DNA from: Candidatus Hermodarchaeota archaeon
GTDB taxonomy: Archaea; Asgardarchaeota; Hermodarchaeia; Hermodarchaeales; Hermodarchaeaceae
Length of the DNA: 40,375 nt
Reading direction: 5' to 3'
Assembly: GCA_016840065.1 (NCBI GenBank)
Contig: JAEOTB010000023.1
Location: 1-40,375 of the forward strand
In this document: positions 27,322 to 32,188 of the stretch, in pieces
Layout of the letters: every line of letters starts with the position of its first letter
How positions within the stretch are numbered: position 1 is the stretch's first letter
Notes under the pieces: model-generated
Database searches by the model: none
The model's input: only the letters and a program-made list of their open reading frames with translations
What the model was told of the DNA's origin: nothing
Position numbers and translations under genes: made by a program

Positions 27322-27420
27322 AGTCAGCAGGTGAAATTCTCGAGAACTTTCAATTTCCACAATAAATAAGAGAGATTAGCTGTTAATGGGATTTCTCATT
27401 TGCTAGAGAGCGGTGAACCT

Positions 27421-29148
27421 ATGCTCGGATTACGTAAGCGATACCTTGTATTGATAATCAGTATTTTGATGATTGTTGCCGGAATCTCCTCTGCGTGGGC
27501 GGTTCAAACCAACTTTGGCTCCGTCCTTGCTAGTGAGATTGATTTGTTTACTACAGAAGGTGTTCTGATTCACAGTACACTCCAAGTGCCTTCCGCAGCA
27601 TCGGCTTCGAATCCGATGCCTGGCGTCGTGGTTATCCACGGTGTGATTCAGTCAAAGGAATGGGTGATGGGATTTGGCATCGAGCTTGCACGCCGTGGCT
27701 TTATCGCGTTAACCATTGACGCCAGCGCACATGGGAACTCAGACCCGAGTAGTTACGGTGCTGACCGTGGGGGGATAGTCGCCCTCGAATATCTAGACAG
27801 TCTACCCTTTGTGAGCACCATAGGAATGGTTGGTCACTCCATGGGTGCAGGAATCGCGATAGACGCAATCAATGAATCATCTGTCACAGTAGATGCATTG
27901 GTTGTTGTTGGCGGTGGCACAACAGACTTCACAACCCCGTGGGCCAACTCCACCTACCCAAGTAATGTACTAATTACCGTGGGACTTTATGATGAGCTGT
28001 TCGATGTCCCAGATATGCTCACATCACTGGCGAGCTTCTTTGGAACCACAGCACCCATCCTAATCGGTCACCAATACGGAACCTTCACAAACGGCAGTGC
28101 CCGAATGCTTATCGCTCCACCCACCAACCATCTCTTCGAAACAATTGAACCAGTAATCATTAGTGAAACCATAGAATGGCTTGAAAACAGCTTACGGACA
28201 GGTTCCAACCCGTATTGGATTCCCAAACAAAACCTCATCTATCCATACTTCATTGCAGGTGGACTCATCGCCTGCCTTGGTATTCTCCTCTCCATTGCCC
28301 CCCTACTGGTTATCCTCATTGAACTGCCGCTCTTCTCCAAAATTAAGAAGGTCCCCTCTTCAACGTATGCTGCCAGCACCCGTTCCTTTTGGGGACTGGG
28401 CATCTTGTATGGTGCTATCGGCTTGGGAAGCTTCTTGCCCTTCTTACTGCTGGGCTACATGATAGACTTCCCTCAAAGTATTGGCGCTCCTGTGGGATTG
28501 TGGTTACTGGGTAGCTGCCTCGTTGCTGCAGCTGTTCTCCTCATTATCAAAAGAAGGAACAAAGACATTCGATGGACAGATCTTGGAGTCTTTGGTACTG
28601 ATACTAAGGGTTTTCTAGTGAGTTTTGGATTGAGTGCCTTACTAGCACTTGTTGTCGTTCTCTGGCTCTACCTTTGGACGCTGCCCATTGATGTAATACT
28701 TGCTCTTGACTTTCGTGTCTTCCTCCCACTCTTCAACGATCTTACCCCTATTCGAGCACTCATCATGCCCATTTACCTGATCTTCACGGTCCCATTCTTC
28801 TTTGTTGAAGGCTTGTGGCTCATCGGACTCCTCCGAACCGCACCTAAAGCCACTTGGCTAAAAACCCAGCTCTCTTGGACCGGAAAAGCAGCCTTCATCA
28901 AAACCATACCGTTCATCGCGGTACTTCTCGTTCAGTTCAGTGTAAGTCTTGCCTTTGGTGCTCCGTTTATCACTGGTTCCATAGGATTCATGCTTCTCTT
29001 CCTGTGGATGTTCGTTCCAATGCAGGCGGTCGCAGCCTGTATCATTGCTTGGTCTTATCGCATCAGTGATCGTATCTACATCAGTGTTGTACTCAATGCC
29101 CTCACATTCAGTTGGATACTTGCTTCCATTCTTCCACTTGCCATATAG
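27421..29148 (+). CDS. Alpha/beta hydrolase with a multi-TM C-terminal domain
   Basis: PGVVVIHG, HGNS, GHSMG nucleophile elbow, YDEL, NHLFE, about 8 C-terminal TMs; GGTGA SD before ATG 27421. Confidence 0.88.
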   Translation: MLGLRKRYLVLIISILMIVAGISSAWAVQTNFGSVLASEIDLFTTEGVLIHSTLQVPSAASASNPMPGVVVIHGVIQSKEWVMGFGIELARRGFIALTIDASAHGNSDPSSYGADRGGIVALEYLDSLPFVSTIGMVGHSMGAGIAIDAINESSVTVDALVVVGGGTTDFTTPWANSTYPSNVLITVGLYDELFDVPDMLTSLASFFGTTAPILIGHQYGTFTNGSARMLIAPPTNHLFETIEPVIISETIEWLENSLRTGSNPYWIPKQNLIYPYFIAGGLIACLGILLSIAPLLVILIELPLFSKIKKVPSSTYAASTRSFWGLGILYGAIGLGSFLPFLLLGYMIDFPQSIGAPVGLWLLGSCLVAAAVLLIIKRRNKDIRWTDLGVFGTDTKGFLVSFGLSALLALVVVLWLYLWTLPIDVILALDFRVFLPLFNDLTPIRALIMPIYLIFTVPFFFVEGLWLIGLLRTAPKATWLKTQLSWTGKAAFIKTIPFIAVLLVQFSVSLAFGAPFITGSIGFMLLFLWMFVPMQAVAACIIAWSYRISDRIYISVVLNALTFSWILASILPLAI

Positions 29149-29230
29149 CTTCAATGCAGCAGGAATCTAGCGGAAACTTAAAGCAAAGTGGATGCTAAGG
29201 CATCTTGTCTTCCTGATGAGAGGTTCGTAT

Positions 29231-31168
29231 ATGCCCAAGGATTTGTATTGGCTTGTGGATGCTGCCTACAGGGAAGGCGTTATTGAGCTGACATTCGTTA
29301 AATCACCCGAACACACCGTTCATGTCACACAAGAACCCTTTATCCCCTATTTTTACGGTCTTCCATCTAACATTGGTGAGCCTGTTGTTAAGCAGGAACT
29401 TCTCTCTGGGCAGAAGCTTGAGGTAGCAAGGATACCATCAAGCAAACAAGTTAGAGTGGAACGATCTTGGGAACAAGATTTAGATCCCGCCTTGAGCTAT
29501 ATCTATGATAGGCAGCTCCGATTTGGATGCCCTTACCAACCCACAGGTGAAGGATTTCAACCAGCTCTCGAAGTCTCACTAAGTCAAAGACGTGCTTTCA
29601 GGAAGCAATTCAATGCCATAGAACAGGAGGACCCCCTGAAATTTAGGTTTCTGCTTCAGCTCTTTGAACAGGTAATCCAACCAGTTCCAACGATTCCACA
29701 ACAGGAACTAGGAATCCCAGCCAAGTTTGATGAAACAAGACTCTTTCGAGGAATGATGCTAGCACGAATTGGCAATATGCCACTAAAACATGCCCTTACT
29801 AGTCGCAATGTTTCCGAGCCGATAAAATCGATGCTGCACACCAGTTACCGTCAACTCGGTGTCTTGATACCTAATCCAAACGAGTTACTGAAAGGACATA
29901 AGCCGCATAGGGTTGAGGGAGCACTGACCGTCACACCCACTCCAGGTGCTTTCTTCAACATGCATGTTCTTGACTTTGAATCACTTTATCCAAGCCTTAT
30001 CGACCACTATAACTTATCATATGAAACCGTTGATTGCGAACACTCATCCTGTAAAGAGAGAAATGTTCCTGGAACCAGCCACTATGTTTGCACCCAGCGA
30101 CGAGGGATTTACAGCGCGCTAATCGGGGCGCTTAAGGACTTGCGCATTCATTGGTTTAAACCTCAGATTCGGGAACCTAACCTCTCCGAGGAAGAGCAGG
30201 AGAGAGCTAGAATCGTATCAGATTTGCTGAAATTTCTGTTAGTGAGTTGTGGCGGAGTCACAATCAGAATAAGAGGACTTGCTTGCCCACCGTTTGCGGA
30301 GTCAATGATGGCGTATGGTCGGTGGGCTCTGCGGACTAGTTGGGCTTGGGCAGAAGAGAAGGGTATGAGACCTGTGTATGGTGATACCGATTCAATATTC
30401 TTAGTTAATCCAACACCACAACAAGTCAAGTGGCTAATTTCAAAGGCTAAAACTGAACTCGGATTGACCTTGGCTCTTGATGTGGTTTACCCGATTTGTG
30501 TATTAAGCGCTGCTAAGAAAGCATATTTCGGAATACTCCCTGACGGAACACCAGACATCAAAGGGCTTACACTTGTGAAGTCGAGTTCACCACCATTATT
30601 TCGTGACATCTTTGCTGAAGCTGTATCCCCTCTAGTTGATGTAGATACTCAAGAAAAGCTGGAGAAGGCTCGACCTAAAGTAATAGATGTGCTACGGCGG
30701 CGTATAGGAGAACTAAGGCGGGGACGGTTTTCTGTTCCTGATATGGAACAGCGAATCAGAATTTGGAAGGAGCCAAGCCAAAGAGAGGCTGATAGTGTAT
30801 TACCTCAAGCCTATCAGGCATGGCAACAGCTTGCTGACGCTGGCATCGTAATCAGAAGACGAGAGGAAGTAGCCTTTGTCAAGGTCAAACCATTCAGATA
30901 TGGTAAACGTACTTTCAGCGTTAAGCCCACTCAGATGGCAGCCAAAAGGGAGATTGATATCCCTGATTATGTCCGGAGACTCGAACTTGCATTCCAACAG
31001 TTTCTTGGACCACTTGATATTCCCTTCCCCCGAGAACCCTCATCAGTACTTGATGAGTTCCTTTCCTCTGACCCCCTAGGACAAGAAGAAGAACCATCAA
31101 CCTCCACCGAAGAAAGAAGTCGTACAAAACGTTCTGACCCACAGAGACGTTTGGAAGACTATACGTGA
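29231..31168 (+). CDS. polB: Family B DNA polymerase, PolB1-like, lacking the 3'-5' exonuclease domain
   Basis: DFESLYPSLI, NLSYETV, YGDTDSIF, KKAYFG, DIKGL; collinear with crenarchaeal PolB1 except for the exonuclease domain. Confidence 0.9.
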   Translation: MPKDLYWLVDAAYREGVIELTFVKSPEHTVHVTQEPFIPYFYGLPSNIGEPVVKQELLSGQKLEVARIPSSKQVRVERSWEQDLDPALSYIYDRQLRFGCPYQPTGEGFQPALEVSLSQRRAFRKQFNAIEQEDPLKFRFLLQLFEQVIQPVPTIPQQELGIPAKFDETRLFRGMMLARIGNMPLKHALTSRNVSEPIKSMLHTSYRQLGVLIPNPNELLKGHKPHRVEGALTVTPTPGAFFNMHVLDFESLYPSLIDHYNLSYETVDCEHSSCKERNVPGTSHYVCTQRRGIYSALIGALKDLRIHWFKPQIREPNLSEEEQERARIVSDLLKFLLVSCGGVTIRIRGLACPPFAESMMAYGRWALRTSWAWAEEKGMRPVYGDTDSIFLVNPTPQQVKWLISKAKTELGLTLALDVVYPICVLSAAKKAYFGILPDGTPDIKGLTLVKSSSPPLFRDIFAEAVSPLVDVDTQEKLEKARPKVIDVLRRRIGELRRGRFSVPDMEQRIRIWKEPSQREADSVLPQAYQAWQQLADAGIVIRRREEVAFVKVKPFRYGKRTFSVKPTQMAAKREIDIPDYVRRLELAFQQFLGPLDIPFPREPSSVLDEFLSSDPLGQEEEPSTSTEERSRTKRSDPQRRLEDYT

Positions 31169-31213: not shown

Positions 31214-32188
31214 TCAGATATCAACCTCTAGGGCAAGTTCGCGTACCATTTCCTTGTACCTGTTTCGGACGGTGACTTCAGTTACTCGCGCGACAGCTGC
31301 GATTTCTCGCTGAGTCCTGCGCTCTCCTTCCTGAATGGAAGAGATATACAGGCTCGCAGCTGCCAGACCGGTTGGGTCTTTGCCCGCGGTGATGTTCTTT
31401 GCCCGGGCTGCCTCGATGATTTCAGCAGCACGACGCTGGACGCGGCTGCTTAGTCCGAGGGCCTCAGCAAAGCGCGGGATAAAGTCAACAGCCTTTGCCA
31501 CTGGGACTCGCATGTCCAACTTGCGAAGCAGGAGACGGTAGCATCGACCAAGTTCCTTTCGATTAATGCGAGAATGGTGAGCAATCTCATCCAGAGTACG
31601 GGGGACATGCCTGAGACGGCAGGCAGCGTACACACAGGAAGCAACGATTGCTTCAATGCTACGACCTCTAACTAGTCGCTGTTCAATGGCGCGGCGGTAA
31701 AGGATGGCAGCAGCCTCTTTTACAGGTCGAGGAATACTAAGCTGGCTGGTAATACGATCCAACTCGCTCATAGCCCGTGCAAGATTGCGGTCAATACTCG
31801 AGTGAACGCGAGTTCGAACCTGCCACTTGCGGAGTCGGTAAATCTGAGCCCGCAAGCTAGGTGCGAGCTTTCGGCCGTGAGCGTCTCGGTCACGCCAATC
31901 AATAGTAGTACTGAGACCCTTGTCATGGATAGTGTACGACATGGGGCTGCCTACTCGCGCTCGTCGGTCCCGTTCCTCACTGGTAAATGCACGCCATTCA
32001 GGTCCAGTGTCAATGACGTGGCTGTCTAGTACCAATCCACAGTTGGTGCAAATGACCTCACCCCGTGCTGGATCACGAGTGACATCGGTGTTTCCACAGT
32101 CAGGGCAGCCAATAGTTTCTTGCTTGGGACTAGGTCGAAGGGCGCGGACGCGCGATTGCGGATGTGCTGTACGAGTTTCGTTAGCCAT
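31214..32188 (-). CDS. tfb: Transcription initiation factor IIB
   Basis: CPDC..CTNC Zn ribbon, IDTGPEWRAF, RGRSIE, GKDPTGLAAA, VTEVTVRNRYKE. Confidence 0.98.
   Translation of the reverse strand: MANETRTAHPQSRVRALRPSPKQETIGCPDCGNTDVTRDPARGEVICTNCGLVLDSHVIDTGPEWRAFTSEERDRRARVGSPMSYTIHDKGLSTTIDWRDRDAHGRKLAPSLRAQIYRLRKWQVRTRVHSSIDRNLARAMSELDRITSQLSIPRPVKEAAAILYRRAIEQRLVRGRSIEAIVASCVYAACRLRHVPRTLDEIAHHSRINRKELGRCYRLLLRKLDMRVPVAKAVDFIPRFAEALGLSSRVQRRAAEIIEAARAKNITAGKDPTGLAAASLYISSIQEGERRTQREIAAVARVTEVTVRNRYKEMVRELALEVDI

Follow-up and report, generated by a model that had tools for sequence, protein, structure and literature searches.

A gene of Candidatus Hermodarchaeota raises the question of whether a cellular family-B DNA polymerase may lose its proofreading domain altogether and still work as a polymerase and, if so, which role it may have beside the replicases of the same genome. 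The gene is located in a stretch of 40,375 nucleotides (contig JAEOTB010000023.1, assembly GCA_016840065.1), referred to as the window. Judged by its sequence, the gene product, P0001, is a family-B DNA polymerase that has wholly lost the exonuclease domain, while the catalytic residues are all kept.

Domain layout and the missing exonuclease

The gene and the N-terminal part of its product comprise the following features:

29220..29223, + strand: Shine-Dalgarno-like GAGG, 7 nt 5′ of the ATG at 29231, read off the sequence
29231..31168, + strand: coding sequence of the exonuclease-less PolB1-like polymerase (645 aa, P0001), from open reading frame, Pfam, NCBIfam and sequence search
29231..29698, + strand: PolB N-terminal domain (aa 1-156) up to PVPTIP, after which PolB1 runs on into Exo I
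29699..29755, + strand: short linker (aa 157-175) replacing the exonuclease domain of about 200 aa, from profile match, alignment and superposition

The open reading frame extends from 29192/29231 to 31168 on the + strand. The ATG at 29231 is likely the start of P0001, because of the GAGG upstream and because the homologs begin there; the other in-frame ATG, at 29192, would add 13 residues (29192-29230) and is the less likely start.

Pfam recognises DNA_pol_B (PF00136) alone in P0001, at residues 192-563 and with 77.9 bits against a cut-off of 23, and finds no match to the exonuclease domain PF03104. The best NCBIfam models are PolB1 equivalogs, which match in two pieces and far below their cut-offs; indeed, the canonical PolB1 equivalog NF004417 gives 332 bits, with a curated cut-off of 780. 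The same two-piece pattern was obtained when a profile built from 64 aligned family members was compared with Saccharolobus PolB1 (1s5j; E 7e-109): query positions 3-165 match residues 13-198 of the chain and positions 169-613 match residues 390-839, with about 190 residues skipped. In the alignment with the canonical PolB1 of the same genome, a linker of about 17 residues after PVPTIP takes the place of the region that starts at Exo I (DIEV) and reaches the post-exonuclease helix; from profile match and alignment together, about 190-210 residues of PolB1 are absent from P0001.

Structure prediction gave the same picture. The AlphaFold (AF2) model of P0001 (pLDDT 88.3, pTM 0.81; residues 607-645 disordered) contains no beta-sheet between residues 112 and 238. 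Its best superposition is on 1s5j (Z 35.0, rmsd 2.9 Å, 500 of 727 residues aligned), and the approximately 230 unmatched residues of 1s5j are those of the exonuclease domain. The initial annotation had described an N-terminal domain of PolB1 type up to PVPTIP, a linker of about 15 residues and a clean excision of the exonuclease; Pfam, profile, alignment and model all bear this out, apart from the slightly longer linker. The whole 3′-5′ exonuclease domain has been excised at the point where the two halves of the N-terminal domain now meet, and the polymerase active site is left in place. A split gene with a separate exonuclease subunit was also considered and rejected: the only PF03104 match in the genome is the canonical PolB1, which is on another contig, and the neighbours of the polymerase gene are unrelated.

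Active-site motifs and C-terminus

The motifs of the catalytic core and of the C-terminal region are located as follows:

29972..29995, + strand: motif A DFESLYPS (catalytic D248, steric-gate Y253), invariant in the family (64 aligned)
30035..30091, + strand: C269/H271/C274/C287 cluster, putative Zn site, invariant here and in canonical non-Sulfolobus PolB1
30230..30256, + strand: motif B KFLLVSCGG, with Lys and Gly kept, Asn→Val family-wide and Tyr→Gly in the Hermodarchaeia clade only
30377..30394, + strand: motif C YGDTDS (D385, D387), invariant (64 aligned)
30515..30526, + strand: KxY motif KKAY (K430 and Y432 invariant), from the family alignment
30866..30928, + strand: basic thumb beta-hairpin particular to the family (aa 546-566), exceeding that of canonical PolB1 by 6-8 aa, with F549, K551, V564 and P566 invariant
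31049..31066, + strand: PIP-like box 1 LDEFLS, a homolog of the motif by which the C-terminus of canonical PolB1 binds the clamp
31142..31165, + strand: PIP-like box 2 QRRLEDYT, closing a disordered acidic extension and kept in all Hermodarchaeia orthologs

D248, Y253, R305, K334, D385, D387, K430, Y432, K450 and the four residues of the C269/H271/C274/C287 cluster are conserved in all 64 aligned sequences, and K310 in 63 of them; the Arg and Lys residues that bind the triphosphate are invariant in the family. YGDTDS is found in each of the first 120 matches and DFESLYPS in 115, the remainder being slightly different at that site. Hence motifs A and C are intact, as had been read from the single sequence. 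Palm and fingers are the most conserved regions of the alignment, linker and tail the least.

Motif B departs from the KxxxNSxYG of family-B polymerases, and the initial reading that both its Asn and its Tyr are replaced holds for P0001; at the level of the family, only the first change is general. The family motif is K-x-L-L-V-S-x-x-G, the Asn being replaced by Val in all 64 sequences, whereas Tyr→Gly is limited to the Hermodarchaeia clade (24 of 64) and the Bathyarchaeia clade retains the Tyr. Further changes relative to PolB1 are found outside motif B: YxGA reads V-E-G-A and is preceded by a 9-aa deletion, and K-R-N-T-P of the thumb has become K-S-[NS]-[ST]-P. The VEGA and VKSSSP readings of the initial annotation were correct, and its motif positions agree to within 3 nt.

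In B-family enzymes, motif B forms part of the wall of the nascent base-pair pocket and is in contact with the triphosphate, as seen in the structures of RB69, phi29 and Thermococcales polymerases. By extrapolation from other B-family enzymes, replacement of the motif B Asn, plus the Tyr in Hermodarchaeia, should relax geometric checking: the PolB2-like Asn→Val would loosen the pocket, and the Tyr→Gly of Hermodarchaeia would add to this effect. Low fidelity, translesion synthesis or use of an altered substrate, as initially suggested, may follow from such changes; the use of rNTPs is argued against by the conserved steric-gate Tyr, and PolB2, with the same Asn→Val change, is reported to copy undamaged DNA accurately (PMC8764526).

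The unusual motif B might also point to a catalytically silent paralog with a structural or regulatory role, binding DNA or PCNA with no polymerisation, as was once believed for PolB2. This is quite unlikely, considering that the metal- and triphosphate-binding residues are all invariant across sequences that are 40-80% divergent, that palm and fingers are the best conserved parts, and that PolB2, in which the site is more degraded, is still active (PMC8764526).

At the C-terminus, LDEFLS of P0001 aligns with the LDTFF terminus of canonical PolB1. Sequences of the Bathyarchaeia clade end in a clamp-binding-like [KT][IL][ST]D[WF][FLI], homologous to the same LDTFF end, while in the Hermodarchaeia clade the LDTFF-like motif is internal and is followed by an acidic disordered extension ending in QKRLxD[YF]. 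Compared with the consensus Qxx[LIM]xx[FYW][FYW], QRRLEDYT has the Q, the L and one aromatic residue only. These PIP-like boxes probably recruit P0001 to PCNA.

Overall, PolB1 (Saccharolobus Dpo1, 1s5j; NF004417) is the closest match to P0001 both in sequence (E 7e-109) and in structure (Z 35). Besides the N-terminal domain, which aligns in both, as do palm, fingers and thumb, the two proteins have in common motifs A and C, KxY, the CHCC cluster and a C-terminal PIP-like motif; P0001 lacks the exonuclease domain and also the N-terminal extension of PolB1, and differs in the Asn→Val and Tyr→Gly changes, in VEGA for YxGA with the 9-aa deletion before it, in the longer thumb hairpin and in its position outside the canonical clade.

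Distribution, selection and phylogenetic position

Sequence searches identified proteins of about 640 residues carrying PF00136 only, with 55-82% identity in MAGs labelled Hermod-, Thor-, Hod- and Promethearchaeota and about 43% in Bathyarchaeia; taken together, the orthologs from Hermodarchaeota and Bathyarchaeia MAGs show 40-84% identity. Their NCBI product name is merely "DNA polymerase domain-containing protein". A scan of GTDB species genomes retrieved 143 relatives, the best 80 of which are on Hermodarchaeota and Bathyarchaeia contigs, closed chromosomes included. Among 301 genomes of the phylum, all 19 of the GTDB family to which the window belongs have a full-length match in a single piece, in frames of about 660 aa; in the other 29 sampled families of the phylum no full-length match to the exonuclease-less family was found, just the canonical match of about 900-1000 aa. 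In Bathyarchaeia, the gene is present in 9 of 81 sampled genomes. A representative library of 1.84 billion proteins, clustered at 50% identity, contains only about eight clusters of the family, and the score drops from 641 bits for its members to 451 for canonical PolB1, which matches in two stretches.

Two short matches, P0166 and P0230, were evaluated as further exonuclease-less lineages and discarded, as their motif B is canonical and they are placed within PolB1; they are truncated PolB1s. In one Hermodarchaeia genome (G114:C73:7378-8457, − strand) the match spans profile positions 253-612 only, inside an open frame of 708 aa, which may reflect a different or fused N-terminus or else a misassembled contig. 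Two contigs with a Bathyarchaeia-type gene (L070 and L081, 40-42% identity) are found in MAGs labelled as the bacterial groups Krumholzibacteriaceae and Acidiferrales, and are probably mis-binned archaeal contigs.

The exonuclease-less polymerase is under purifying selection. Within the genus, dN/dS (NG86) is 0.08-0.11 at dS 0.8-1.4, whereas canonical PolB1, compared between the same pairs of genomes, gives 0.035-0.055; these values are approximate, the synonymous sites being partly saturated. An assembly artefact or a decaying pseudogene, for which the unusual architecture is the only argument, is refuted, and its probability is close to nil, by the recurrence of the same architecture in well over 100 independent assemblies, closed chromosomes included, by the intact frame and by the dN/dS of about 0.1.

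Canonical PolB1 was looked for in the same genomes. The genome containing the window (84% complete) encodes, on another contig, a canonical 892-aa PolB1 with Exo I-III, as well as PolD, a Y-family polymerase and a PolB2 whose motif C has the form HGIVD; in Bathyarchaeia, the form of about 640 aa and that of about 900 aa are found together on each of five closed chromosomes. A canonical PolB1 of about 900 aa accompanies the exonuclease-less gene in each genome checked, and therefore the latter is an extra polymerase and not a replacement of the replicase. The genome of the window also contains two full-length frames for the PolD large subunit DP2 (1179 and 1164 aa; C36:11262-12062 and C93:64-864), which, with a MAG contamination of 5%, could represent a real duplication, strain heterogeneity or mis-binning.

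In the window, the polymerase gene sits between a membrane-anchored alpha/beta-hydrolase (27400-29148, + strand) and TFB (31214-32188, − strand), with a hemerythrin further upstream. The hydrolase (582 aa) combines an alpha/beta-hydrolase domain at its N-terminus with a long hydrophobic multi-pass region behind it. Of 17 Hermodarchaeia loci, 15 have its gene directly upstream of the polymerase, and a radical-SAM gene is upstream in 17 Bathyarchaeia loci; clustering of the neighbours at 76 loci revealed none common to the two clades. Thus, both candidates for a conserved partner were set aside, as they look like mere synteny within a lineage. In ten Hermodarchaeia loci, all of the sister genus, a stand-alone LigD 3′-phosphoesterase (PF13298) lies two to three genes downstream (e.g., L020:3624-4082, − strand). 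A link to NHEJ was dismissed, no ligase or Ku gene adjoining it in these ten loci; LigD_N was not found in the genome of the window, which is 84% complete.

A replicative role resembling that of Pol alpha, namely extending primers or making short initiator DNA at the fork, while PolD or PolB1 would correct the errors in trans, would agree with the strong purifying selection, the universal presence in Hermodarchaeia, the clamp-binding motifs and the housekeeping neighbourhood with TFB and a RIO kinase. However, the gene is present in only nine of the 81 sampled Bathyarchaeia and in a single Asgard family, so that archaeal replication in general can do without it, and linkage to primase genes is lacking; such a role is unlikely.

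The position of the family among archaeal PolBs was analysed with two trees, both quick searches with long stems. In the first one, built from 84 sequences after removal of the exonuclease columns and rooted on PolB2, the exonuclease-less proteins form one clade (SH-aLRT 100, stem 0.84), within which the Hermodarchaeia sequences are a single clade (100); the canonical PolB1 of Hermodarchaeia is placed among other Asgard PolB1, and that of Bathyarchaeia elsewhere. The second tree (55 sequences, PolB3 outgroup) has the topology (PolB3,(PolB2,(exonuclease-less, PolB1))), with support of 100 for the grouping of the family with PolB1, 91 for the monophyly of canonical PolB1 and 100 for PolB2 as a separate clade. 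Membership of P0001 in PolB2 is ruled out by this grouping and by motif C, which is YGDTDS and not HxxxD, in agreement with the initial claim that the enzyme is distinct from PolB2. A derivation from crenarchaeal PolB1, also suggested initially, is not borne out, since the tree puts the family as sister to all canonical PolB1, although it could be a fast-evolving offshoot pulled to the base by a long-branch effect.

The Asn→Val change of motif B is common to the family and to PolB2, whose motif reads KW[IL]LV[TA][SC]FG in Asgard archaea, Bathyarchaeia and other Thermoproteota (genes L002, L122, L123, L156-L159), whereas PolB1 and PolB3 retain the Asn. On the tree topology, two changes are required either by a shared ancestry with PolB2 or by convergence.

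In both maximum-likelihood trees the Hermodarchaeia sequences are nested among those of Bathyarchaeia (support 92 and 84). This nesting, together with the distribution, suggests horizontal transfer between the two groups, which may have run in either direction, as a monophyletic Bathyarchaeia group is not rejected by the AU test (p 0.35). The patchy occurrence over two phyla might also be explained if the polymerase belonged to a provirus or other mobile element and had been carried from one to the other. This is very improbable, given the stable synteny in Hermodarchaeia, the metabolic and housekeeping neighbours, the placement of each clade as a single group in the tree and the absence, at the locus, of integrase, terminal-protein or other mobile-element features.

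Possible function and significance

The reading that is moderately favoured, on sequence grounds, is an active, PCNA-tethered polymerase devoid of proofreading, with an accessory role as an extender or in gap-filling repair. The enzyme would carry out DNA-templated synthesis from dNTPs, would be loaded on PCNA through the C-terminal PIP-like boxes, and would be accessory to the replicases PolD and PolB1, either filling gaps or extending mismatched or lesion-opposed primer ends. Catalytic activity, PCNA binding and the repair or extender role are all inferred from sequence features. The absence of a repair gene as a conserved neighbour across the two clades counts against a repair role, and a further translesion enzyme beside PolB2 and the Y-family polymerase of the same genome might be redundant.

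The proposed role would be analogous to those of PolB2/Dpo2 and Pol zeta. PolB2/Dpo2 lacks exonuclease activity and is accurate on undamaged DNA; it is an extender rather than an inserter, which efficiently extends mismatched or lesion-opposed termini (PMC8764526), and it acts in a mutasome with iRadA and PPB2 (PMC11791011). Like the exonuclease-less family, it has no proofreading, carries Val in motif B (KWILV.. versus K.LLVS..) and occurs alongside replicative PolBs; unlike it, PolB2 reads HxxxD where the family has YGDTDS, most of its members retain a decayed exonuclease domain, and its gene forms an operon with those of iRadA and PPB2 (PMC11791011), such neighbours being absent from the P0001 locus. 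Eukaryotic Pol alpha and Pol zeta are likewise B-family enzymes that work with no proofreading beside proofreading replicases, but they keep an inactivated exonuclease fold, have Zn/Fe-S C-terminal domains and B subunits, and are only distantly related.

The initial annotation had considered that related PolB1-like lineages may already be catalogued; no group of such architecture or distribution is included in the PolB classification B1-B10 (PMC7544198 with its supplement), nor is one described in PMC4104785, PMC12680538, PMC8764526 or PMC11791011. Thus, the family is provisionally considered undescribed in the searchable literature, subscription journals being mostly outside the search. A wider reading is possible, and is proposed only tentatively: the family may be an undescribed major archaeal PolB group, as deep as PolB1, and the sole cellular primer-dependent PolB group in which nothing of the exonuclease domain is left; on this reading, it would have passed between Bathyarchaeia and the Hermodarchaeia ancestor, and its PolB2-type motif B would reflect either a common origin with PolB2 or convergence.

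If true, archaea would hold a second, independent Pol-zeta-like enzyme. The origin of the eukaryotic replicative and translesion polymerases is discussed with reference to the archaeal PolB groups, and Asgard archaea are central in this respect; the family described here is found throughout one Asgard class-level lineage, is patchy in Bathyarchaeia and is strongly selected. It shows that proofreading can be lost as a structural module while the catalytic core stays, and the Asn→Val and Tyr→Gly changes that occur naturally in its motif B represent ready-made variants for studies on fidelity and mismatch extension and, possibly, for enzyme engineering. The Asgard repertoire also gains a probable specialised polymerase.
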